A DNA stretch of 63,957 bases, the filler included, from Atractiella rhizophila (lineage: Eukaryota): assembly GCA_021432655.1 (NCBI GenBank). It is 12 parts of 9 records of this genome, joined end to end, with 100 filler letters (N's around TTAATTAATTAA, not from the genome) between each part and the next. Parts side by side here need not be neighbours in the genome. Positions count along the whole stretch, not along the records: positions 1 to 9,658 come from MU272106.1; 11 more parts are not named here. One strand, written 5' to 3'. Shown piece after piece: positions 1 to 34,153 of the stretch (the first letter of the stretch is position 1; every line of letters begins with the position of its first letter). The notes under the pieces are model-generated. The model searched no databases and was not told where the DNA came from. It saw only the letters and a program-made list of their open reading frames with translations. The position numbers were made by a program, and so were the translations under genes.

Positions 1-1904
1 CCGGATTCTGCTGTCCAGCCATATCTGAAGCTAAATTCATCTGAATGTGGGCAGCTTGCAGCTGTCTGTGGCTGGTTGCACCTGAGTAAGTGTCTGCATC
101 CAAATGACACCCATCTGAATCTAGACATGGTGCATCTGAATGCAGTCAGTCATTGGACAAAAGAAGATGCATTTTCTACTGCTTTGGGCTTTTCTCCCTT
201 GTCTTCACATGATTGTTTTTTGGATTATTTTAAAGCTTTGTAGTCCACAGGGATTGAATCTGAGAACTCTAGCAAAGATGGCAGTTAATACCATTTAACT
301 ATCATGGTGTTATGCTGCTGATTATTTCCTGGATTTTCATGAGGCAGAAAACAAACGGAGAATGTATGATAGAATTAAATCAAACATCTACATTGTGAAT
401 TAAATGCATTTCCCTGTATTATCCTTTACCCCACCCACTTTTCTCACCTCTTCCATCACATCCCCTGTAGGTCTTGACACCAATAGAACCTCTGAAACTT
501 ATCTTCTAACCTCTTCTACACTTTTCCATCCAAGCCCATGTTATGGTGTATCTATCACTGCCGTTCCTCTGCCATTGAGGGGACAGTGATGGGAGTTGTG
601 GTATAATGACCAAGTGATGCATTGGGGCCCTCATATTGCTTGTTCCACGTCTGAAACAGTTACTGGTAAGTGAACGGATTTCATGAGATAGCAACAAATA
701 CTCCACCTGCTTTCCAGATTGAGAAAGCTGCTTGTACTCCTCTTTCCAGTCTGAGTCTAAATGTTACTCCTATCAGCCCATTCCTTTTCCCATTGTCTGA
801 TCTAGAGTGCTACTGGACAAAGCAAAATGTTAACCCAATATGCCCTGAGACAAAGCTGGACATGACCTTGAATCCGGTTGAAGATGGTGGTACAAAGAGG
901 GCAGCTTCTCCCACGTTTGCCAACGTCACACCTGCCTGTTATCCACACAAATCAGGTCAATAACAAACCTGAGCATATAGAGTTGTGGAACCTAGCTTAA
1001 TTTAATACCTTTTTGATGTTCTTGAAAGGTGTTGACTGACAGGGGGTCTGTCAGTGTATAGAATGTTGAGTTGAATATTCTAGCTCACGGTAGGAGCTTG
1101 CACACCATTTGACTAAGTCGAACTACACTAACCCATGATGCACAGGCAATCCTGTGCTGTCTTCTGCAATGCCATTCACACAGAAAAGTGTGCTATGGGC
1201 TCAGTCATCTGGCAGTGTTGTGGCAGTCAACAACATCAGTGTAGTAGAAATACCACCTATTGGTCCTGACTGAATCTGACTTAGGGATGAAGAGTCTATA
1301 AAGTAAACGACATTAGTTGTCACCCTGTGAGCATATGGCCGAGGAGAAGTTGACAAATTGTTTTCATTAGAGATGTTAGAATTCTGTAAAATGCAGCCAA
1401 CAGCAATGGAGGTTATGGGAGATGTAGGATTACCATTCAAATTGCATGATACCTTCAACAGCTATCATGGAGGGCAGAAACTTTACTAGCCTCACATTTT
1501 TACAAGCGCATTTTGAGGTTAGACTGAGGAGCTGGCAGTGCTCTGTAAGGTAAGACTAGAATTTCCATGGAAGTAGTGGTTCTATACAATTTTTTGGAAA
1601 ATTTAAAGAGTTTTATAGAGAAGATGTACAATTGAGAAAAGACTTCGACCCTTCTTCCTTTACTATCTTTACCTTTCACCTTTACTACCTTATTCTTCTC
1701 TGCCACCTTTTCTTCCAGGCCCAGTTGTATTTGTAATAGTTAGCCCCATACATTATAAGAGATAACAGAACCTTCTAGAATATATTACAACAGTTGAGAA
1801 CATTACTCTGTAATATAATAGAACAGTCTAGAACATTCTCTGAATAACCTTAACTACTATCGCTTATACCATCTGGAATATTCTGGAACAATTCCATAAC
1901 TATA

Positions 1905-3154
1905 TCACATTCCTTTACCGACATCCCAAGCTCGTCTGTTGACCCTTCGTTGTTGTTTTAAGTGGCTTCTGGTGTCCTAAATCTGTCTACAGGTCGTCCT
2001 CTACTCGTAGAATAAATTCTTGAAGGCCTGGTGACAGGGGGAGGTGTTGAAGCTGCTGGAGGAGGTCGATCTGGTGTTGTTGAGCGGATCTGGAGTGGAT
2101 CTGGAGACTCTGAGAATGCAGGCATGTGAACTCCTGTCCAAGGATCTCTCTGCATGGTGTACTGACGAGGCGGGTGTGTTTTAGGCCGTTCAGGTAGGAG
2201 CTGTAGGGGTCTGGAGACGGCTCTCTTTCTTCATCTTCTTCTTCTTCAACCTGAAGGGGCTAAAATCTGTTTGGAGACTGTATTGCAAGCAGTCTCGGTT
2301 GTTCCTTAGGTGTAGGAGGTGCTTCTGGCCGTTGAATCCATCCATCTTCATCTTCATTGTCGTCGTCTAGCGAAATCCTGGCTGGAGGAGCGGCTGGAGC
2401 ATTGTTCTGTCCATCTCCTACCTGATCCTGACGCTCCTTCCACTCATCAAGTGGTCCCTGTGGCTCTTCCAACATAATCTTCTCCTTCCTAACCTTGCAG
2501 AGCATCTCTCTCTCATCGAATCTGGCAACATCTCGAGTGTAGACCTTCTTTCTAACAGGATCCCAGAACTCACCCTTTCGCTACAAGGGAATAGCCTATA
2601 AATGCACATTTTCGAGTATGAGATCCTAAGCTGTGTGGCCTTTCATCCTTCTGAACTTGAACGTAGGCAGTGCATCCAATGATTCTGAACCTTGAGATGG
2701 TTGGAGTAAGTCCAGTGAGTTTCGTGTGGGGAATAGCATCGTTGATCGAAGCTGAGGGAGATCTGTTGCAAATGTGGACAACCGCTGAAGCAATAGATGG
2801 CCAGAGAAAGAGAGGCAGCCCAGATTCTTCAAACATGGCGACCATAGTCTCCTGAATCGTCCTATTAGCTCATTCTGCCCTGCCATTCTGGTGAGGAGAG
2901 TTCCTGATTGTCTGTTCGCGCTGAATACCACAGGCCTTGAGGTATTGATCGAATTCCTTAGAGGAATAAGCGCCTTCCTTGTCCTCTCTAAACTTCTTGA
3001 TCTTCTTCCCAGTGATATTCTCTACCCAATTCTTGAAGGTCTTGAAGAGTTCTGGGGCCTCTGATTTCTTCTTCAGGAAGGCAATTGTGCAATGATTCGT
3101 TGCTTCATCGAGGAAGGTGACCCAATATCGATATCCTTCTCAGGATGTGACTGG
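1905..3154 (-). repeat. Inverted copy of the Copia integrase/linker segment at 6998-8247
   Basis: ORFs 2260-2505(-), 2570-2845(-) and 2626-2931(-) are identical to 7647-7892(+), 7307-7582(+) and 7221-7526(+). Paired coordinates sum to 10152. Confidence 0.95.
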
Positions 3155-5367
3155 ATGGATCTTGGGGCACACCACCTCTCTACTTGGGGATTACTTTGTA
3201 CATATTGCAAAGCCTTTCATGGATGGAAGAGAAGATCGTTAACAGCCCGCAACGAAATCCAAAGTTTGCATTGTGCTGTCTCTACGGCAAGGTGCTGCTA
3301 CCTTTCCTCCGCCTCCGCCTGAAGAGCTACGAAAGCTTTTTACACATCACAATACAACAGGTATGTATTTCTATTCAATTTATTGCGTATACATATCTGA
3401 GAGGAACAATCATTATAGAGTCAAAGGCATTTCGAGAGCATATCAGGGTATTCAATCATGCTTTTGCCTTTACAATCCTTAGGCGTCCGCCAGGTATCAA
3501 TTCCTGGACATGGTCCCTACTCCTTCAAAATTCAGGGAGAGCCTTGCCACCTTATTGGCACTCTTTACCACAACAAGATGGGTGTGAAACCTTTGCACAG
3601 GTCTACATTACAGATTCAGTTGTACAGACTGAATGAAGAGTTGGCAACACTTCAATATCACTGAATCGTAGGACACTTGAAGATCTTCAGGCTATGCTCT
3701 TCTGTGTCAACCCATATCCCAGGATCTACAATTTGCAAAAGAAAGAATGGAACAGGATCCCACTACAACACTACATCTTCGCACAGTCGCCCCATGAGAT
3801 AGGGACCCAAGACGCTACAACATTCCTGTAGCCAGTGAAGTTGCTGTAGTGATGGTAGGAGACGGTAACAGAGAAGAATATGGAGTGGCCAGAGATATTG
3901 TCATCCAGCTCAGGGCAACCAGGACCGGTAGCAACTTACAGCGTGTCAATGAACTCAACTCAAATTATCTTGAACTTCGTTTTCCTCTTCTGTTTCCATA
4001 TGGGGACCAAGGATGGCATCCGCAGATTCCGTATCGAGACCTGCCTGCAGATCTTCCTCCTCGCGAGCGAGAGCACTTCAATGATGACGGCATGCAAGTT
4101 GGTAATTCTGGGGTTCGACAACGTGTCAGCCAAATGGAGTTCATGTTGCATCAACGAAATGATATATTCTCACTCCCTCTCTACAGTGGTCGGCTGCTGC
4201 AAGAATTGGTAGTCGATGCTTATGCTCAAATTGAGGCGAATCGACTCCGCTATCTGTAGTTCAATCAGTCTATTCTTCGAGCCGAGGTGTATCAAGGTCT
4301 TACGGATGCCCTTGCAGAAGGTTATTCTTTAGAAGATATCGGGAGGCGGACTATATTACCATCAAGTTTCACTGGTAGTCCACGTTCAATGAATCAGCTG
4401 TTCCAGGATGCAATGAGTATAGTTGGTGCCAAAGGACCCCCAAATATCTTTACAACCTTCACTTGCAACCCACACCGGGCAGAGATCACGGAAGCCCTCC
4501 TACCAGGCCGAAAACCAGAGGATCAACCAGATTTGGTTTCAAGGGTTTTTCGACTGAACGCTCTGGAGTACATCAAGGATTTGGTACGACAGATCTTTGG
4601 AAGGGTTATCGGATATGTCTGGGTCATTGAATTTCAGAAGAGAGGTCTACCACATGCCCACATCCTGTTGATTCTTCATCCTGAAGATCTTATCAGGGAT
4701 GAGGCAGCCATTGATCGAGTAATTCAAGCAGAGCTGCCTGATCTAGACAAGGACCCTGCATCATTTGAAATAGTCACCAAGCATATGCTACATGGCCCAT
4801 GTGGTGAACATAATCCAGATGCACCTTGCATGGTCAATGGGAAGTGTGGCAAAGGGTATCCCAAGCCTTTTGTTGAGGAAACGAGAATCAATGATAATGG
4901 CTACCCTAGCTATCGGCGGCGTAACGATGGCCGGGTTTTTCGCAAGATGATACGGGGCCAACAGTTTATATATGATAATCGATGGGTAGTGCCTTCTAAT
5001 GCTTGGGTCCTGAGGAAGTTTCTGGCTCATATCAACACTGAGATCTGTATCTCAATTCGTTCAGCCAAGTATATATTCAAATATGTATACAAAGGGCCGG
5101 ATAGAGCACAATTAGTCATAGAATCAGATTTCAGTAGAGCAAGAGAGCCAGTGGATGAGATTAAAGAGTATTTGGATGCATGATATGTGGGTGCTTCAGA
5201 AGGTTTGTTCAGTCCATTCCTCAAAGGTTAAGGATTAAGTATGATTATAGCATGCTGGCGGATTTTCCACTTCAAGCTTCATGATCACTCTCCAATTGTG
5301 ATTTGACTGAGTATTCATCTTCCAAATCAACAGATGGTTATTTTTAATGCAGATGATGGTCAACCTG
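3155..5367 (+). mobile_element. Helitron RepHel, N-terminal zinc finger and Rep (HUH) region; decayed and intron-containing
   Basis: Motifs CTYCKAFH..EE...FALCCLYGKVLLP, GRLLQELVVDAYAQIE, ILPSSFTGSPR, FTTFTCNP, VIEFQKRGLPHAHILL and KYIFKYVYKG. Stops and frameshifts are present, and an LTR interrupts it at 5368. Confidence 0.93.
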
Positions 5368-5566
5368 TGTTAGTTGTAGTGTGTTGTTTTGGTCATCTGC
5401 CTCTTATGACTCTTATGACTCGTATGAGTCATCACTATGTAGTTTAGTTCTGCCTAGGAGTGTTGGTGCTCATTATTGACCACCAACTACTCCTAGGTAT
5501 GTCTCTCTATACTTCTCTAATGTCTCATTATTGACCACCAACTACTCCTAGCCTTAGATCCTTACA
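5368..5566 (+). repeat. 5' LTR of Copia element A
   Basis: Runs TGTTAG...CTTACA and is followed directly by a TGGTAGCGAGAGC primer-binding site. Confidence 0.85.
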
Positions 5567-5580
5567 TGGTAGCGAGAGCT
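5567..5580 (+). promoter_or_regulatory. Primer-binding site (tRNA-Met-like); second copy at 5663-5676
   Basis: TGGTAGCGAGAGCT abuts the LTR-terminal CA and resembles the Copia TGGTATCAGAGC-type PBS. Confidence 0.75.
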
Positions 5581-8315
5581 GGTGGCTAGGATTACACCCA
5601 TCACCTACTTCTCTAATGTCTCATTATTGACCACCAACTACTCCTAGCCTTAGATCCTTACATGGTAGCGAGAGCTGGTGGCTAGGATTACACCCATCAC
5701 CTTCCTCCTCCTCCAGACCACATTTTCACCCCTCCTGCACTCAAATTTCGCTCAATTTCGATGATCAAGACAGATCTGTGATCCTCAGACCTTCCTTTAC
5801 CACCTTAGAAGGTGTCAGCTTACTCAGGAATCAAGAAATATCGAAATCTATCACCTTACCACCCACTTCCTGCCTCAAAACGCACTTTGCCACCCTGGAC
5901 TCAAACTTTGACGAATTTGGACATTATAGGGCTTATTTTGATCGTGAAACACTGCGCTACAACTTTACTAGGAACCATCTTGGTTACAATAAGCGAAAAT
6001 TTTGAGATAGCCACTCCATCACCTCCTTCATACCCCTAAATGCATTTTTCGACTTTTTGAAGTCAGATCTGGTCTGATCTGGACAATTTTATCGCCATTG
6101 GATTCACAATAGGCTATTCTACTATCCTACAACAGATCACCTTGATCAGAAGACTCAAAATTTCGAAATTTGCCACCATCACATCATCATCACATCAGCC
6201 CCTATCACCCTTTCTCCATCAGGGGATCTTAGGACTCAACCACAGGGTCTAGGAGGATGTTTGGGATGGAAATGGCTCTTGATGGGTTAGAATTTGCTGG
6301 GCTGAACAGTCTTGCTGCAGCAAATGATGTCACTATGCCTCAAGCAAGCCTTGAGTGGATAGCAGACACTGGTGCAACTTCCCACATGTCTCCCCATCGC
6401 CATTGGTTCAGAACCTATCACAAGAAGGTCATCCCTATCAGGGTAGCAAGTGGAGAAGTGATTTGGAGTGCTGGGATTGGGAGCTTGATCTTCGAAGCCA
6501 AGTTGGGGGAGAAGAAGACCACTACCATTACCATCTCAGATGTCCTACATGTCCCCAAGCTCTGGAACAACCTCCTGTCAGTCTTCAGGCTCACTATTTA
6601 CAAGGGAATGAGGGTCTCCATCAAGCACAACAAGGTTCTCTTCTTCCAGGGTCAAGAACTCTGCCTTACTGCCACTGTGGACTACAAGAATGGAAGCATG
6701 GCTGGGATACTTGATGGGAACACCCTTCCTGCTCCAGACTTTGCTGGAAATGCTTCTACACTGCCAATGGATGCCTCTCTGTGGCACAGAAGACTTGGAC
6801 ACCTGAATTATGAGGATATCAAGCGTCTGAAGAGGAAAGAACTTGTGAATGGGATGATTTTGGACCTAGAGGATGATCCAGACCCTATTTGCGAGCCATG
6901 CCTAGCTGGGAAGCAGCATAGAGTCTTCAACAAGTCAGCAGAGACCAGGGAGAAGGAAGTACTGGGTAGGATCAGCTCAGACCTGCATGGACCTCTCCCA
7001 GTCACATCCTGAGAAGGATATCGATATTGGGTCACCTTCCTCGATGAAGCAACGAATCATTGCACAATTGCCTTCCTGAAGAAGAAATCAGAGGCCCCAG
7101 AACTCTTCAAGACCTTCAAGAATTGGGTAGAGAATATCACTGGGAAGAAGATCAAGAAATTTAGAGAGGACAAGGAAGGCGCTTATTCCTCTAAGGAATT
7201 CGATCAATACCTCAAGCCCTGTGGTATTCAGCGCGAACAGACAATCAGGAACTCTCCTCACCAGAATGGCAGGGCAGAATGAGCTAATAGGACGATTCAG
7301 GAGACTATGGTCGCCATGTTTGAAGAATCTGGGCTGCCTCTCTTTCTCTGGCCATCTATTGCTTCAGCGGTTGTCCACATTTGCAACAGATCTCCCTCAG
7401 CTTCGATCAACGATGCTATTCCCCACACGAAACTCACTGGACTTACTCCAACCATCTCAAGGTTCAGAATCATTGGATGCACTGCCTACGTTCAAGTTCA
7501 GAAGGATGAAAGGCCACACAGCTTAGGATCTCATACTCGAAAATGTGCATTTATAGGCTATTCCCTTGTAGCGAAAGGGTGAGTTCTGGGATCCTGTTAG
7601 AAAGAAGGTCTACACTCGAGATGTTGCCAGATTCGATGAGAGAGAGATGCTCTGCAAGGTTAGGAAGGAGAAGATTATGTTGGAAGAGCCACAGGGACCA
7701 CTTGATGAGTGGAAGGAGCGTCAGGATCAGGTAGGAGATGGACAGAACAATGCTCCAGCCGCTCCTCCAGCCAGGATTTCGCTAGACGACGACAATGAAG
7801 ATGAAGATGGATGGATTCAACGGCCAGAAGCACCTCCTACACCTAAGGAACAACCGAGACTGCTTGCAATACAGTCTCCAAACAGATTTTAGCCCCTTCA
7901 GGTTGAAGAAGAAGAAGATGAAGAAAGAGAGCCGTCTCCAGACCCCTACAGCTCCTACCTGAACGGCCTAAAACACACCAGCCTCGTCAGTACACCATGC
8001 AGAGAGATCCTTGGACAGGTGTTCACATGCCTACATTCTCAGAGTCTCCAGACCCACTCCAGATCCGCCCAACAACACCAGATCGACCTCCTCCAGCAGC
8101 TTCGACACCTCCCCCTGTCACCAGGCCCTCAAGAATTTATTCTACGAGTAGAGGACGACCTGTCGACAGATTTAGGACCCCAGAAGCACCTCAAAACAAC
8201 GACGAAGGGCCAACAGACAAGCTTGGGATGTTGGTAAAGGAATGTGACATCCTCACTGAGCCAGAGGCGATGGAATATGGCTATATGCTTATCACAGAGG
8301 AGCAGAGGTCCCTCA

Positions 8316-8535
8316 TGAGAGATATAGACGCTGGATGGAGCTAGGGGACAGGAGTTGGTGGTCAAAGATGATAGGATTGATAAGGAAACACATACCTAGG
8401 GGACAGGAGTTGGTGGTCAAAGATGATGACCACCAAGACTGCCCCCTAGGGAGAAAAACTACGAAGTGAGTAAACACAGCAAGGGTGGCTGACCACACAA
8501 AGGCAACACCATGAAATTTAATAGCTAATCCAACA
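8316..8535 (-). repeat. 3' LTR of Copia element B
   Basis: On the minus strand, purine-rich AGGTGGAG is followed by TGTTGG...TCTCA. It shares the TTGACCACCAACT..CCTAG repeat motif with LTR A. Confidence 0.75.
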
Positions 8536-9658
8536 CTCCACCTGGGCAGCCGCCTCTTGAAGCTCCCACCAAATCCAATAATCGCCGAAGAAAGCTCCCA
8601 CCGAATATAAACAGCATCGAATGGTATGACACAAAGAAAACATGTTAATTGTTTGACTAAATCCACTAGAGAGATTCTCGTACCGCTTAGAGCGGCGTCT
8701 TATAACCCCCAGAAGGAGGACAGAGTTTTATTGCGCCCCATAACTGCCTCATACACTTGGGTAGGGGCGCAGACCCATCATTTCTCGGAATTTAGAGACT
8801 CCAGCAACTGGTAAAGCCTTGGTGAGGAGGTCTGCAGGCATAGATTCGCCAGGACAGAAGACTGGGGCGATGAGTCCAGATTCTACTGTGTCCCTGAGCC
8901 AGTAGAAGCGAAGATCCAAGTGCTTCATGCGCCCGTGGTGCTCAGGATTCTTGCTGACTTGCAAGGCGCTGTTGCTGTCCGTATAAAGTGTTGTTGGTCC
9001 CTTTGGAGCGAAGCCAATCTCTTGCAGAAGATTCCTAAGCCAAACCACCTCTTGTCCTACTGATACCCCTGAGATATACTCCGCCTCCGTGGTTGAGAGT
9101 GCCACAAGAGACTGTAACTTGCTGCTCCAGCTGACTGCTCCTCCTCCAATAGTTAAGAGGTATCCTCCAGTAGACCTGCCAGTATCCTTGCATCCTGCAA
9201 AGTCTGCATCACAATATGCCTTGAATGGTTGAGAGATATCGAAGTCTGAGGCAGAATACTCGATGCACATGTCCTGAGTGCCCTTGAGATAGCGCAGGAG
9301 GTGTTTGGCAGCTTCCCAGTGCCTCTTGCCAGGATTGGAGAGGAATTTTCCGAGGACAGAGACAGTGTGGGCGATGTCAGGGCGTGTAGCAACTGCAAGG
9401 TACATGAGAGAGCCGACAACATGACTGTAGGGAATGGTTCGCATCTCTTCTTCGTCTTCCTTGGTCTGAGGACAGTCTTGTTTCGATAAACTGTGGCCTA
9501 CACTAAGAGGAGTGAGCACAGGCTTGCAGTTATCCATCTTCTGTCGAGACAGAAGGTCCTTAACGTATTGTTCCTGATCCAGCCACATCTTCTTCTGCTT
9601 CCTATCTCGCCTAATTCTCACTCCAAGCAAAAATTCCGTGGCTCCAAGGTCCCTCAGC
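8316..9658 (-). mobile_element. Ty1/Copia retrotransposon B, RT C-terminus + RNase H + 3' LTR, inserted antisense into element A
   Basis: ORF 8749-9630 has YSHVVGSLMYLAVATRPDIA, YCDADFAG..RSTGGY, WSSKLQ..VALSTTEAEY, KHLDLRFYWLRD and ADLLTKAL. Confidence 0.95.
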
Positions 9659-9758
9659 NNNNNNNNNNNNNNNNNNNNNNNNNNNNNNNNNNNNNNNNNN
9701 NNTTAATTAATTAANNNNNNNNNNNNNNNNNNNNNNNNNNNNNNNNNNNNNNNNNNNN
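9659..9758. other. Artificial contig linker (N44-TTAATTAATTAA-N44); first of 11 identical linkers
   Basis: Identical 100-bp spacer with stops in all six frames. It recurs at 19334, 29005, 31170, 36669, 46203, 48483, 54713, 58911, 60866 and 62818, and genes are cut off at these points. Confidence 0.98.
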
Positions 9759-9853: not shown

Positions 9854-11075
9854 TGGGTGATGATCAACCATGTACCGTTACAGAGCCCAGCTGAAGCATT
9901 GAGGTTTCGTATTAGAATGATAGGGGTTCCAACTTCGAGATGAAGAAGATGAAGAGGGAGACCCATCATATTGAGAGTATTAAGATATTCAACTGTGAAG
10001 CTTGTGAAGCCTTATTGAATGTTCTCACTGCCGTCCATCCATCGGTCAGCACTAAGGTAGATACATTCCTGTCGGGAGACAAATTGTCCAATAAGCTGAT
10101 CGTTTATCATGTCAACACATTCCGGGCCGTAAGGATCATTCACTCTTGAAACTATTGCCTCAATTCGACTGGGTTGACATCTTGTGTTATGGTGCTCAGT
10201 CCAGGGTATATGTCAGTCAGGAGACCTTCCAGACCACGGGGTCGCTGGACTATTGTTTGGTCCTTCATAGTCAATGGACCATGGCCACAGTCTTCCGTGT
10301 TATCTGTTGCGCCATTACCAACTGACAACAACCGTTCAGCAAAGCCAGAAGCAATAGCAGAATCTCAGCTACTCATTTCGACACGATGACGGAGCAAGCA
10401 CATATTTACTATGAGTGGGAGGACTCGAACTGTGCGCCAAAGGGACTGTTGATGATACTCGCATCGACGATCTGCACATGTAAAGCTTTGGGATGGCTGA
10501 GAGGCATTGTTGCATGTCACCTAATTATTTATCAGACATGAACTCTCTGACTTGATGCACTTACCACCGAGAACCAAAATAACTCCACCAAAAGGCACAT
10601 CCACCTTATGTATATCTCTCAGCATCCGGTCAACTGCTTCAAAGCACCATCGATGACTCATTCCCACTTTGTCCCAAATTATCAATTCTGCCTCTCGACA
10701 AAGTTGATTGTGATCACTTTGAGCCATAACACCACAGACAGAATCAGCCTCAATGTCCAATGGGATCCGGAAGCGATTATGGGCTGTTCGTCCACCCCCC
10801 AGCAGAATAGCAGCAATACCGGAAGAGGCCACTGCCAGCACAATTTTCCCTGTTGAACGCACCGTGGCGACTAATAGGTTTTCAACAAAAGTCTTTCCAG
10901 TCCCTCCTGGCCCATCGATAAAAAATAATGCACTATTTCCACTTTGCCATGCTTCTACAACCGTGTCATAAGCATGACGTTGGTCCAGATTTAATAACGG
11001 TAACTCTGTCTGAATACGTGCATGAAGTAGTGGTTGATCATATTTAAGTTCTTCCCCAATAATCCTTATCCTTTG
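9854..11075 (-). mobile_element. Helitron PIF1-like helicase region, decayed
   Basis: FFIDGPGGTGKTF, VASSGIAAILLGGGRTAH.RFRIP, PFGGVILVLGG|D and LEVGTPIILIRNLN..GLCNGT. Confidence 0.93.
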
Positions 11076-11864
11076 TGGTCTGTCTGTGAGTAGCAAGTCT
11101 CGACTGGCACCACTTCAAGGTAATTTCATTCCGCTTAGTTCTTGCCCCTCATCTCAATCATCACTTCCTTGTGAATCCCATTTTCAACGAGCACAGGGAC
11201 ATGATTCCAGCCAGCAAAGCAGCTTTGATTGAACATTCAAGGTCAGTTATCTTCGAAAAAGCAAAGCAAACCATCTTCTTCCGACAACTGCTTATGTGAA
11301 ATATCATGAAACCGTGAGCACTACATGACCTGATTGATGGAGAAGGAAGGAAGCGAAGGAATATAGCTCCAAGAAGGACATCTGGCCAACTGATAAAGCA
11401 AATTAAACTCACCACAGTTTTGGGCATGAGTCATAAAACACATTTTTTAGCCTCATACCTCCGTCACCAGGCATATTGAAACAAAATAAATTACACCATC
11501 TTACTACATATGCTTATGCCTTTCTGAAACTGCAAGGAAATTTTATTTTGAGGTGGTGAGAACAATATGTTTTGTACTGGACTTGAACCCTTGAAAGCAA
11601 GAAAATAGCCAACTCTGTCCCGACAATTCCCCTGCAATGAACCAACTTCCACAGCAGCAGCATGGGCGACAATTACCCTGCATGTGATTTCTTTGGCATG
11701 GTTTGATCACTTCTCAGGACATGCGCTAAAAGTTCACTCATGAGAGAAGGAGAGCACTGGCATATAAGTGAAATATACTCTCTTACATGCTTCTGACAGC
11801 CAATTAGACTCATTATGCCGTCCTAAGCAAAAAAAGGTGCTGAGATACGAATTCGCCAGCCCAA

Positions 11865-12165
11865 TGTTAGGGCTGACACTGTTCTTGTTGTGAGCAATGG
11901 GGGAAGCTGCCAAGTAGAGCGGATATCCTAAGTATTATTACAATGATACAAGAGTGATACTAATCTGCCAAGTAGAGTGGATATCCTAAGAGAACCAATC
12001 TGGATATCTCATTCTACTGACAGGGTGTTTAGACACAGACAGCTACAAGTTCCAGAATGTTCCAGCATACTCCACCCTTTATTTGCCATATGCCAGACAG
12101 AACCTTCTAGACCATTTTCCCCATACTCCAGAACATGAGTCATGCTACAAAAGCGAACCCTGATA
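11865..12165 (-). repeat. LTR related to the LTR at 31297-31786, abutting a Helitron
   Basis: Its minus-strand end AGTGTCAGCCCTAACA matches 31771-31786, and its start TATCAGG resembles TGTCAGG. It has an internal 26-bp direct repeat. Confidence 0.7.
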
Positions 12166-13540
12166 CCTGAAATCCTTTAAGGATATCCGAACAGTAAAGG
12201 GAGCTGTTTATGAGACTTTCAAGGCTACATGTGTGGCTCTTGGGCTGTTAGAAAGTGTTGAAAAATGGGATTATTATCTTAATGAAGCCAGCTCAGTTAA
12301 GAATGGCTTTGCGATGCCATCTCTGTTTGTCTATATCCTGCTATTCGGAGTCGCCAGCAAACCCAGAAGACTATGGGACAGCAATTATGAGCAACTCAGT
12401 GATGATTGTAAATACCTTCTATGGACAAATATGATGTAGGCAATCTAACGAACAAGCAAATTACCAGCCTCTGTCTTCTTGAAATTGAAGATCTCCTCCA
12501 GCTCATGGTAAATCCCTAAGTGACTTTAGACTACCATAACCCACAGAGCGACTAGAAGGATGGGGAGGTGAGACAAGGATTATTGGAGAAGAACTTGCAC
12601 ATAACGGACCACTACTTCAGACATGTGTTTAGACAGAGGTACCATTATTGAATCTGGACCAGCATGATGCCTATGACCAGTAGTAGAAGCATGGCAAAGT
12701 GGAAATGGTAAATTATTTTTATCAATGGGCCAGGAGGGACTGGAAAGACTTTTGTTGAAAGCCTATTACTCACCAAGGTGCATTCAGCAGGGAAAATTGC
12801 ACTGGCAGCAGCCTCTTCCAGTATTGCTGCTATTCTGCTGGAACGAGGACAAACAGCTCATACTTTCTTCCAGATTCCGTTGGACATTAAAGCTGATTCC
12901 ATCTGCAGTGTTATAGCTCAAAGCGATCATGGTTGACTTTGTTGAGAGGCAGAATTGATAATTTGGGACAAAGTGGGAATGAGTCATCAATGGTGCTTCG
13001 AAGCAGTTGACCGGATGCTGAGAGATATACATAAGGTGGATGTGCCTTTTGGTGGAGTTATTTTGGTTCTTGGTGGTAAGTGCCTCAAGTTAAAGAGTTT
13101 ATGTCTAATAATAATCAGGTGACATGTGACAATGCCTCTCTGTCATCCCCAAGGCTTCATGTGCACAGATTGTCCATGTATATGTCATGAACCGTCCCTT
13201 TGGCCAGCAGTTCGTGTTCTCCCTCTTATAGTAAATATGTGCCTGCTCTGTCCTCGGGCTCAAAATGACTGGCTGAGACTTTGCTATTGCCTCTGGCTTT
13301 GCTGAGTGGTTGTCAGTTGGTAATGGCACAACTTATAACATGGAAGACTGTGGCCATGGTGCATTGAGTATAAAGGACCAAACAATAGTCTGATAATCAG
13401 GCGGACTGGATGTGACTTCTACCTTGGACTGAGCACCATAACACAAGATGTCAATCCAGTCGGGTTGAGGCAATACTTTCAAGAGCACATGATCCTTATG
13501 GCCCAAAATGTTGATGCTTACATGCCAATGAGACATATCC
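12166..13540 (+). mobile_element. Second Helitron helicase fragment, decayed
   Basis: KSFKDIRTVKGAVYETFKATCVALGLL..WDYYLNEA and GPGGTGKTF. Clearly similar at the nucleotide level to 10140-11075 in reverse orientation. Confidence 0.9.
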
Positions 13541-30183: not shown

Positions 30184-30312
30184 CCTCACTTTAAGGGGCC
30201 CAACACCCCTATATGCCTTGCCGGGTGAAATCCTAGTCTTTGATACGTAGGTCAAGGCAAGGCGCCGACTTGTTCCTCAACGGACAAGTCGGCGACTTGG
30301 TCGTTAGTGAGT
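30184..30312 (+). ncRNA. Candidate structured RNA module, copy 1
   Basis: Multi-stem fold with compensatory changes relative to copy 2 (see findings). Confidence 0.6.
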
Positions 30313-30410: not shown

Positions 30411-30543
30411 CCTCACTTTAAGAGGACCTACTCCTCTACACGCCTCGCTGGGTGAATCCCTAGTCACATTGTTGAACATAGGTCTAGGCGAGGCGCCGGT
30501 CTGTTCCTCAACGGACAGATCGGCGACCGGTTTGTCGGTGAGT
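30411..30543 (+). ncRNA. Candidate structured RNA module, copy 2
   Basis: Same fold as copy 1; G-U wobble pairs favour the + strand. Confidence 0.6.
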
Positions 30544-31296: not shown

Positions 31297-31786
31297 TGTC
31301 AGGCTTGCCCCTACGCATTACCGAAATGTACCATTCGGAGTCACGTGACCTACTTCAGTACATCGTAGGATCAAGTGCCTACACGTCGCCGCTTTGCGCA
31401 CGTTCGCGCTGACCGCCGCCTTCTCCCATCTCACTCGAATCGCCGCTCAGCAAACCTTATACATTTCGCCGGTCTGCACCGTCGCCATTATTGCCATGTT
31501 ATCTTTTCTCACTTGTACTGCTCAGTATATCTTATTTCCGAGTATTCCCTTTATTGCTTTCCTGATCTAGCTATCTTACATGTTTCAAGAAACTTATGTT
31601 ACAGTTTATGGCAGTGCCTTGGCATATGTATATATACATCGAGACGTAGTGGTGGTGACCTCAGAGTATTCTCTTAGCTTTACCTCCACTACAGGTTAGT
31701 CTTCTCATGCTATACGATTCACTTAGGTTTACCTCCACTACAGACGCATCGTCTATCGGCGACCGCACATAGTGTCAGCCCTAACA
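31297..31786 (+). repeat. 3' LTR (Gypsy-type) preceded by a G-rich PPT
   Basis: GGGGGG tract at 31288-31293, imperfect inverted ends TGTCAGGCT...AGCCCTAACA, and TATATATA at ~31629. Confidence 0.8.
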
Positions 31787-32479: not shown

Positions 32480-34153
32480 TTATTTCTTAGCCTCCAACTC
32501 TATGAACTGACCCCAAGGTACCTTGTGGGGCAATACTGAGTGCCTTTTGCAAAGGTCAATAGCCTCCTTCTCCAGATCATGATCTGCAGAATCATCATAC
32601 TGCCATCCCTCCTTCTCCCTCCTCCTGATGATCGCTCGGAACTGTCTAGGCGATAAACGACAGTATATCTCTCTATAAACATGGATTAGGCGAAAAATAT
32701 GAAAGGAAATAGGATAGAGAATGAACCTATTGGGACCACAGCAGTCAAGAAAAAGTTCTTGGACCGTGCCCACACCATGGGATCGCCATAAGTGGTCCTA
32801 AGACTGCCCCTGGTGCCTTGACGCTGATACCAGGCCACATGATAGGGTTCATAGCGCCTCCTACATCCAAAAATGAGTAAAAAATGGCGCTAATGTGAGA
32901 CAGGAATCGAGAGAAACTCACCTCTTCTCCCCTGGATGAAGCAGAACGGGGAACTGTCCATCCATAAAGCGCACTGCAGAATTGACGATATATGAATTCA
33001 TGAGGGTGGAGAATTCATCACTGATGGGATCATAAGAGAGAACCAAGGGGATGTTCTCATTCTCTCCCATGACCCAACGATTCACTGTGATGAAACCACA
33101 AAGATCAGAAAAAAGATAGGAAGGTACACAAGCAAAGAACATACCTGCTCTTGGAAAAACATTGTGACAGAGATCATTGCCATTGAAACCGATCTTAAAA
33201 GCTTCCAAGCCATAACAATCCATGAGATCTAAAAGGATAACCAGTACTTAACAGAAGAAAGGTGTAAAGATTTGAAAAGAACACCCACCTTTCATTGATA
33301 CCTTTCCCATGACCAGAGGATCCAAAGAAATAGAGTATTTCTCCCTAACAGCATCAAACAAGGTATGAAGGGACGTCACATTGCTTCCAGACATGATGGA
33401 AAGTCTGCAGATTGATGGAGAAAGGCCACACAGAGCCAGAGCAGTTTATATACCCTTCTCCCCCTGCCATATGGGGGCCATCGTTTATGCAGCTTAGTAA
33501 AAGCTCCTCACAGCCTTTCAGGCTGAATTTGCGGCCACAAATCAACGCAGTGGAGCAGTGTGTACGCCCCACAAAGCAGGAGCTCCACCTATTAGCCTAA
33601 TGATCAATTAAAACCATCGCACCATCCACTCAAAGACCAGGAGCCCCGCTGATGAAATGATGCAAAAAATAGGGAACCCACAGCACTGTACCATCGAAAA
33701 TGGGCGGAATAGACGGCCTCAGGACTCTCCATGACGCTTACAAATGCAGGAGCTCCACCTGTTAGCCTAATGATCAATTAAAACCATCGCACCATCCACT
33801 CAAAGACCAGGAGCCCCGCTGATAAAATGATGCAAAAAATAGTGATCTCACAGCACTTTGCCATCGAAAAGGAATGGAATAGACGCCTCAGGACTCTCCA
33901 TGACCGCCCTGAATCATCCAGAGCATCCCCATTTAGCACAAGAAGCATATGATGCATTGCCGCTTCATCTTGAGGAACAGGGAAACGCAGGAGAGACAGC
34001 CCATAGAGGGGGTGTCAGGACCCTTTGAGCGACCAAAAAGGCGCCACAAAGACCACATTCCACCCTATTTCCTTCCACATAAGGACTCAACACTGCAATG
34101 AATAAAGAAAACACAAGAAAGAACCTCAGCCTACGCTGAAGCGCAGATAACAA
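32480..34153 (-). CDS. Hypothetical multi-exon gene or pseudogene, no recognisable family
   Basis: A chain of minus-strand ORFs separated by GT..AG intron-like segments. Confidence 0.35.
33576..33904. repeat. Tandem duplication with ~170-bp period
   Basis: 33576-33735 and 33746-33904 are near-identical. Confidence 0.9.

Follow-up and report, generated by a model that had tools for sequence, protein, structure and literature searches.

In a 63,957-nucleotide (nt) stretch of the genome of Atractiella rhizophila (assembly GCA_021432655.1), here called the window, long terminal repeats (LTRs) from two retroelement lineages, one of them of the Copia type, carry a compact module in which a short sequence X occurs twice (X1 and X2), with a spacer Y between the two copies and a partly complementary segment L upstream. 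The anatomy of this module, the splice-like letters placed beyond chance at the edge of X1, the hairpin formed by L and X, the concerted evolution of X1 and X2, and the setting of LTR, primer binding site (PBS) and polypurine tract are directly observed. The best single explanation, which we hold tentatively, is that Y and X2 together would form a short intron within the LTR, whose 3' end may be held equal to the upstream exon end by copy choice of reverse transcriptase (RT).

Four direct repeats share one LTR module

A scan of the whole window for ungapped, non-tandem direct repeats of at least 20 nt, with at most 2 mismatches and a spacing of 30-120 nt, yielded four short-range repeats, which are precisely the loci A, B, C and D discussed here; a version of the scan based on exact 14-mers yielded seven, and the longest three non-tandem ones among these are A, B and D. 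Loci A (5469-5551) and B (8341-8427) lie in contig 1 (1-9658), C in contig 2 and D in contig 5 of the 12 short contigs that make up the window, and the N linkers that join them rule out reading a feature from one contig into the next. The original prediction had described at locus A a 28-mer (5469-5496) with GTATGT behind it and an exact second copy at 5524-5551, which we confirmed, with a period of 55 nt; the 55-nt GT..AG segment with the branch-like motifs CTAAT and TTGAC is likewise present as sequence. The same layout had been claimed for three further loci. There the repeats are real, being an exact 32-mer at B (8341-8372 = 8396-8427, period 55), 25 of 26 letters at C (period 58) and an exact 16-mer at D that extends to 21 of 22 (period 49), but C has no GT donor and B lies on the minus strand, where it reads ..CCTAG/GTATGT. 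Locus D has the edge CAG/GTTAGT; at C, the repeat continues with TATTAT on the plus strand and with ATTAGT on the minus strand, on which C is aligned with its homologue D. At each locus the order is L, X1 ending in AG, a hexamer (GTNNGT in A, B and D), Y, and X2 ending in AG, and X2 ends 9-43 nt short of the LTR end. The features are as follows.

5368-5566, plus strand: LTR A, the 199-nt 5' LTR of a Copia-type element, TGTTAG..CTTACA, placed by contig joints, the boundary of metagenome contig L005 and adjacency to the PBS
5451-5468, plus: L of A, the 5' hairpin arm, imperfectly matching the 3' part of X as an inverted copy (fold and duplex energies)
5469-5496, plus: X1 of A, loop and 3' arm of the hairpin, with an AG end as candidate exon end (repeat search, fold)
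5497-5523, plus: Y of A, a pyrimidine-rich spacer starting with GTATGT and containing CTAAT (sequence, alignment with B)
5524-5551, plus: X2 of A, an exact repeat of X containing TTGAC, with an AG end as candidate 3' end of the intron (repeat search)
5552-5566, plus: tail of LTR A, its final 15 nt (contig joints, L005, A-B alignment)
5567-5579, plus: candidate PBS of the TGGTAGCG.. type, sequence TGGTAGCGAGAGC, directly after LTR A
5606-5702, plus: second unit of a perfect 96-nt tandem duplication, with a third X (5620-5647) and a second PBS (5663-5675)
8332-8535, minus: LTR B, the ~204-nt 3' LTR of a second Copia element, homologous to LTR A
8428-8450, minus: L of B (fold, duplex energies)
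8396-8427, minus: X1 of B, 32 nt (repeat search)
8373-8395, minus: Y of B, starting with GTATGT (sequence, alignment with A)
8341-8372, minus: X2 of B, identical to X1 in 32 of 32 letters
8536-8546, minus: polypurine tract CCCAGGTGGAG, directly before LTR B
11865-12023, minus: LTR fragment C, with L at ~11998-12023, X1 at 11965-11990, Y at 11933-11964 (starting with ATTAGT), X2 at 11907-11932 and the terminus at 11865-11879
31645-31786, plus: LTR end D, with L at ~31645-31665, X1 at 31673-31694, Y at 31695-31721 (starting with GTTAGT), X2 at 31722-31743 and the terminus at 31772-31786

The boundaries of LTR A are marked by contig joints at 5368 and 5566, by a depth in the bin 5349-5497 that is three to four times that of the interior (contigs mapped onto 5200-9658), and by identity with L005 that begins at the first base of the LTR. 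LTR B starts with TGTTGG at 8535, where contig joints are found as well, and its end at 8332 (..ATCCA) was placed by alignment with A, to which it is 72% identical over 126 nt. To judge from their sequences, A and B are one Copia family, and LTR B is the 3' LTR of another element, which sits nested, in reverse orientation, inside the element that LTR A opens. With a 5' LTR at A and a 3' LTR at B, the module is thus present in both LTR positions. C and D have in common an exact 15-nt terminus, the ends TGT..ACA and the same layout. The claim that the repeats lie near the LTR 3' end holds for A (LTR 5368-5566) and B, and for C and D the orientation is assigned by analogy with these two only; on this understanding, all four loci are 3'-proximal LTR parts from two lineages, A/B and C/D. 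C and D had also been labelled Gypsy-type. No RT, integrase or other retroelement domain is found near either of them in contigs 2 and 5, and the label is unsupported: both count as LTR-like ends of unassigned superfamily and lack what would mark them as Ty3/Gypsy.

A third exact copy of X at locus A (5620-5647) had been overlooked. It is there because a perfect 96-nt tandem duplication of 2.0 copies (5510-5702) spans the LTR end and the PBS, doubling both. Since L005 carries X-Y-X without this duplication, the latter is specific to the copy in the window.

The repeat edges coincide with splice-like letters

The pattern AGGTNNGT, that is AG followed by GTNNGT, occurs at 33 sites in 62,989 bases on both strands (2.6e-4 per position and strand), and it sits exactly at the repeat edge in three of the four loci (A, B and D). 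The original prediction had named a chance-level frequency of GT after LTR repeats as a way in which it could fail; donor-like edges turned out far above the base rate (3/4 vs 2.6e-4). Alignments show that A and B are homologous (z score 10.1), as are C and D (z 6.7), whereas similarity between the pairs ranges from z 0.7 to 2.2, A-D and B-D being marginal (z 2.1 and 2.2; 9 and 6 of 300 shuffles). The loci thus represent two lineages, possibly distantly related, rather than four independent cases, and even when counted as n = 2 the coincidence of repeat edge and splice-like letters is far beyond chance.

This observation speaks against the notion that the module is a neutral by-product, in which hairpin-induced template switching by RT would have duplicated the arm, the splice-like letters being incidental and without function. 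The surroundings would suit such an origin, as they are a graveyard of nested and truncated copies, element A shows no gag or RT match, and a copy-specific 96-nt duplication adjoins the module. However, X-Y-X is common to A and B, which are 72% identical, and to C and D, which makes it old and retained, and 28 identical nt within a 55-nt period are not a simple tandem duplication. We regard this account as very unlikely.

Three further schemes were considered and discarded. A tandem-duplication (Rogers) origin would place GTATGT after X2, where A has CCTTAG.. and B has CTCCAT.., and only 28 of the 55 nt of the period are identical. An insertion of Y as a mini-element with X as target-site duplication is implausible at a repeat length of 22-32 nt. 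Finally, if X were the terminally repeated region (R) of the RNA, with transcription starting at X2 and polyadenylation after X1, then no RNA would contain Y, which would have no way of being passed on.

X is part of a hairpin and its copies evolve in concert

In all four loci X forms the loop and the 3' arm of a hairpin, the 5' arm of which, L, lies just upstream. Compared with shuffled upstream sequence, the L:X duplexes have z scores of -4.1 (A), -8.0 (B), -5.8 (C) and -3.3 (D), and their energies were matched by 0, 0, 0 and 7 of 1000 shuffles, respectively. The hairpins of A and B fold with -41.8 kcal/mol (z -4.5) and -40.6 kcal/mol (z -5.4); for C and D, folding the whole segment gave no significant result (z -1.2 and -1.3), and in the lowest-energy fold of D, L pairs with X2. 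X starts with the first base left unpaired after L and extends to the foot of the stem, immediately followed by GT. Both edges of the repeat are thereby explained, as the hairpin loop and the splice-like site coincide with them. Searches with Rfam families gave no match in the window at the gathering score; a hit of mir-4766 on the hairpin of A (25.5 bits vs a threshold of 72) was treated as chance.

Within each LTR the two copies of X are identical or nearly so (28/28 in A, 32/32 in B, 25/26 in C, 21/22 in D). Between related LTRs, X differs, matching in 24 of 32 letters with a 4-nt indel for A vs B and in 17 of 26 for C vs D, and the copies thus evolve in concert. Y behaves differently again: its first hexamer is conserved (6/6 in A vs B, 5/6 in C vs D) while its remainder cannot be aligned (p 0.44 and 0.64).

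These properties also bring into view a structured cis-element of R and the unique 5' region (U5) that would work without any splicing. In such an element L and X1 would make up the hairpin of R, with X2 as a spare U5 arm near the PBS, likewise able to pair with L; by changing its partner, L could provide an RNA switch that governs dimerisation, 5'-3' cyclisation, the placement of the primer or the control of poly(A) addition, the GT hexamer would belong to a poly(A) signal, and X1 and X2 would be kept equal by RT slippage in cycles of duplication and deletion. The significant L:X complementarity in four of four loci, the L-X2 pairing in the lowest-energy fold of D and the distance of only 9-15 nt between X2 and the PBS in A and B are all consistent with this proposal. 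The same is true of the TAG..TATGT..TTT arrangement in A and B, which resembles the classical yeast 3'-end signal, and of the 96-nt duplication, which marks the region as prone to duplication. In addition, leader alignments of contigs from two other organisms (records 15 and 23, see below) start exactly at the first base of X, as would fit a start of R at this position. Left unexplained are the stop of identity at AG/GTNNGT in two lineages and the GTTAGT of D. Moreover, complete identity of X1 and X2 exceeds what pairing with an imperfect L would need, and slippage should homogenise or tandemly repeat Y, yet the sequence after X2 holds no repeat of Y. On balance, we consider a splicing-independent R/U5 element unlikely, albeit a serious contender.

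Copies in other organisms and in a metagenome

A search for sequencing runs that contain the sequence gave 15, all of them recorded as DNA or as of unknown kind and none as RNA. Contigs of four coded runs were mapped onto 5200-9658, which includes loci A and B, and variant forms were derived by contig arithmetic. In coded organism A the element is massively repeated (4523 + 2028 contigs mapped). Two LTR contigs of this organism with ~85% identity span 5368-5567 with only 6-7 gaps, X-Y-X thus being kept, and a 55-nt skip corresponding to loss of Y and one X was not seen among the best 15 of 28 joints and the best 12 of 25 indels. A pattern scan of a metagenome gave ten loci, of which one, L005, is related and the other nine are unrelated repeats. 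L005 has kept X-Y-X with one change in Y, and it carries the polypurine motif CCCAGGTGGGAG ahead of its LTR. Its positions 1-778 (minus strand) present an A-type LTR between a pol end with polypurine tract on one side and a PBS with leader on the other, an arrangement that would result from tandem elements with a common LTR or, alternatively, from an assembly path that crosses the repeat.

Two other organisms provided variant forms. In a 366-nt contig of coded organism B (record 15, depth 18.1), position 5405 is 38 nt away from one end and position 5706 is 62 nt away from the opposite end; its alignment reaches 5500, gives way to a loose end of ~80 letters and resumes exactly at 5620, the first base of X, to run to 5767 with 1 differing letter in 148. 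The bin mean agrees with this layout (3.65 = 18.1 x 30/149). By contig arithmetic, this copy reads X, then GTAT plus ~80 unalignable letters (a spacer of ~84 nt), then X. In coded organism D, a 313-nt contig (record 23, depth 2.83) aligns over 5620-5848 (229 nt, 9 differing letters), its other 84 nt fall within 5349-5497 including 5405, and none falls on 5498-5619; the bin means again agree (1.6 = 2.83 x 84/149; 0.51 = 2.83 x 27/149). By the same arithmetic, organism D seems to have a single-X LTR without Y in an otherwise 96%-identical LTR-leader.

A candidate LTR intron, possibly kept by copy choice

According to the explanation that we prefer, Y and X2 (49-58 nt) would be a spliceosomal intron in the LTR-derived leader, located just upstream of the PBS. 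Three considerations lead to this reading, namely that the 3' edge of the repeat coincides exactly with AG/GTNNGT, that both the sequence and the length of Y vary but its leading hexamer and the two X copies persist, and that the lengths fit host introns. Candidate introns measure 55 nt in A and B, 58 nt in C and 49 nt in D. They have GT..AG ends in A, B and D, with AT in place of GT in C. A branch site would be expected ~15-35 nt ahead of the AG; branch-like motifs occur in A (CTAAT and TTGAC) and B (TTGAC), D showing no clear match. As to the host, genes for eS4, an S1/P1 nuclease, eIF3c, Brr6, a signal peptidase, Xpo1 and a CPL1-like protein are found in the window, and they point to a fungus with short introns. 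The eS4 gene has four introns of 55, 78, 62 and 62 nt, picked by eye on the three-frame translation under the guidance of the conserved protein; their donors are, in order, GTTCGG, GTAAGT, GTGCGT and GTGCGT, and their acceptors AAG or CAG. Intron candidates elsewhere in the window that restore an open reading frame (ORF) measure 46-109 nt. Length and donor type of the LTR candidates resemble those of the host's own introns (55-78 nt for eS4).

Splicing, the way in which the module arose and the role of copy choice are inferences from this anatomy. The junction between X2 and the tail has in the DNA the same sequence that the spliced junction of X1 and tail would have, and for this reason an origin from a spliced RNA template is proposed. 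In this scenario, RT would start on a spliced RNA, copy its tail and then its 3' arm, pause in the hairpin loop and then switch into the intron of an unspliced template. Thereafter, copy choice between spliced and unspliced RNAs would hold X2 equal to X1, strong-stop transfer onto X2 being one form that this may take.

Several points weigh against an intron. Locus C has ATTAGT and thus no GT donor, and the spacer in coded organism B starts, by contig arithmetic on the loose-end consensus, with GTATCC, which does not fit GTNNGT. The branch-like motif of D is weak. As modelled, the hairpin of A pairs the first bases of the donor, which should hinder binding of U1. The hexamer may instead serve polyadenylation, given the likeness of TAG..TATGT..TTT in A and B to the classical yeast 3'-end signal, and a transcription start near X1 would make for a very short first exon. 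Furthermore, the A-D and B-D similarities of z ~2 suggest that the lineages may be not fully independent, and the evidence as a whole consists of four loci, one metagenome copy and contig arithmetic.

The original prediction had gone further in proposing that strand transfer restores the intron. In its obligatory form, the 5' copy would be spliced and the 3' copy left unspliced, strong-stop complementary DNA (cDNA) made from spliced RNA would land on X2 of the 3' copy, and the intron would be rebuilt at each retrotransposition. This is a special case of the copy-choice intron, possible but demanding, and we judge it distinctly improbable. In its favour, the concerted evolution of X1 and X2 is what would be predicted if one X is rewritten from the other, and no 55-nt deletion form is found among the best-supported joints and indels of the 4523 + 2028 contigs. 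X begins right after L. If transcription started at the 5' edge of X, only the 3' copy would retain L, which could there cover X1 together with the donor while X2 stayed accessible; in A and B, the block TCACT..GTAGTTT, found ~25-50 nt upstream of X1, is conserved. On the other hand, the transcription start would have to be exactly at the 5' edge of X, because otherwise the 3' end of the cDNA would be an unpaired flap on X2 that cannot be extended. The cycle also needs a poly(A) site after X2, which in A and B would limit U5 to 9-15 nt at most, and a 3' copy that escapes splicing, that is, differential splicing. In addition, a single-X LTR seems, by contig arithmetic, to exist in coded organism D, in which case the module can be absent from a near-identical LTR-leader. 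Such a cycle is, moreover, unnecessary, as unspliced RNA can serve as template, like in BARE1 (PMC3735527).

An extended version of the cycle would let the module solve the poly(A) problem of the 5' and 3' LTRs, in addition to being an intron proof against reverse transcription. Transcription would then start at the 5' edge of X, leaving the 5' copy without L; with the 5' donor open, Y, which would carry a 3'-end signal, would be spliced out. In the 3' copy, L, as part of the unique 3' region (U3), would close X1 and the donor in the hairpin, the intron would be retained and its poly(A) signal used, with X2 remaining free. Strong-stop cDNA of the spliced RNA would finally anneal to X2, by which X-Y-X would be rebuilt in each cycle. 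This extension is a long shot.

Elements and contigs around the loci

The coding parts of the two Copia elements are as follows.

6233-7579, plus strand: internal part of element A, with a protease-type barrel, GAG-pre-integrase, integrase core and SH3-like domain (domain search)
8752-9657, minus: C-terminal RT/RNase H part of the Copia pol of element B, the coding stretch covering 8560-9657 (translation)

Domain matches in element A are Pol_BBD, gag_pre-integrs, rve and SH3_retrovirus, and the domain search gave no gag or RT match in this element. The nearest Protein Atlas clusters to the pol end of element B carry RVT_2 on 11-40% of their members and yielded no informative taxon; a scan of viral contigs gave no match to this C-terminus. 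The Copia order of protease, integrase, RT and RNase H is present in A and B taken together, each copy being incomplete, and further Ty1/Copia hallmarks, that is TG..CA LTR termini with defined boundaries and a polypurine tract before the 3' LTR, are found as well. As for a target-site duplication, both ends of an element are present in the contig for neither A nor B. The PBS at 5567-5579 starts with TGGTA, as is characteristic of sites primed by initiator tRNA, that of Ty1 among them, and would be of this type; a tRNA search found no tRNA gene in the window for comparison. Between the PBS and the protease domain lies a non-coding leader of ~650 nt (5580-6232). Lacking a gag match, yet present at very high depth in coded organism A, element A may be an amplified non-autonomous derivative.

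Within LTR A, positions 5401-5432 hold the 9-nt unit CTCTTATGA three times, with TGACTC twice and a palindromic TGAGTCA; these resemble Gcn4/AP-1 sites and would suggest stress-responsive promoter elements in U3. A 1253-nt inverted duplicate with 98% identity (1902-3154 vs 6998-8250) covers the integrase-to-linker part of element A, and 1902-3154 is thus a second, reversed and truncated copy of this element in the same contig. The internal region also contains a 52-nt segment AGG/GTGAGT...CAG at 7579-7630 (plus), with an inverted copy at 2522-2573 (minus), whose removal merges two ORFs to give a single one with a length of 555 nt. This segment may represent an intron internal to the element, like that of BARE1, or else a site of frameshifting or a product of decay. 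Shortly before LTR A lies a Helitron_like_N/Rep fragment (4260-5180, plus).

Fragment C is flanked by inverted Helitron fragments, which form a 957-nt inverted repeat of 83% identity (10117-11070 vs 12572-13511), and contig 2 also holds a PIF1 helicase fragment (10524-11114, minus). Contig 5 has a 170-nt tandem repeat of 2.0 copies and 92% identity at 33571-33904, and contig 4 a ~130-nt direct repeat (30184-30312 vs 30411-30543) with 77% identity and a spacing of 227-231 nt. The contigs are joined by 100-nt N linkers with TTAATTAATTAA mid-linker, located at 9659-9758, 19334, 29005, 31170, 36669, 46203, 48483, 54713, 58911, 60866 and 62818, and these linkers themselves register as a 33-copy family in a repeat search of the window.

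Comparison with known systems

Retrotransposition is expected to erase introns. An LTR intron that survives it would, if true, show how retroelements meet the intron demand of their host, and it may also show how one LTR sequence can act differently at the two ends of an RNA. Even if it were not spliced, the module, with its hairpin, concerted spare arm and hypervariable spacer, is a signature for which fungal LTR libraries can be screened, and it gives a testable prediction on the copy choice of RT. Full-text searches of an open-access library brought up no account of an intron that lies inside an LTR.

Splice donors within R are known from human T-cell leukaemia virus 1 (HTLV-1) and foamy virus, and binding of U1 silences the 5' poly(A) site of human immunodeficiency virus 1 (HIV-1). 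Similar to these cases, the module would place a 5' splice site in the LTR-derived leader, where it could distinguish the 5' from the 3' copy; unlike here, the retroviral acceptor lies far downstream outside the LTR, and duplication of an exon end is not known to be described. In the Rogers model, introns are born by tandem duplication of a segment containing AGGT. As in such introns, a direct repeat of the exon end flanks the candidate intron and splicing would give back a single copy, but the model needs the start of the intron to be repeated after the second copy, which is not so here. Template switching by RT is known to delete or duplicate direct repeats; it would homogenise or delete X-Y-X, in line with the single-X form that seems to exist, and it predicts no splice letters at the repeat edges.

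In barley BARE1 (Copia), Drosophila copia and Ogre, introns lie within LTR retrotransposons, and, as proposed here, a short GT..AG intron occurs in a Copia-type element, theirs with pools of spliced and unspliced RNA; in contrast, their introns are internal to gag/pol and only unspliced RNA is replicated, whereas the present candidate is located within the LTR itself, upstream of the PBS, and has its exon end duplicated (PMC3735527). In split-intron retroviral vectors, LTR duplication rebuilds a functional intron in the progeny provirus (Ismail et al. 2000, via PMC3182074), but these are engineered, with a donor placed in the 3' LTR and an acceptor that follows the packaging signal, and are without direct repeat or hairpin (PMC3182074). 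Introners differ in being transposons turned into introns of host genes rather than LTR introns (PMC12130899). The disputed lariat/Dbr1 hypothesis for Ty1 posits a 2'-5' branch between RNA ends (Cheng and Menees 2004, via PMC5399748); it likewise ties splicing-type RNA chemistry to minus-strand transfer in the Copia superfamily, in that model without an intron or repeat in the LTR (PMC5399748). With regard to a possible host demand for introns, most of the genes tested in Cryptococcus neoformans accumulate far less mRNA once their introns are removed (PMC3744415). Taken together, a complete intron inside the LTR, with a 3' end that duplicates the exon end, is what would set the module apart from each of the systems compared.

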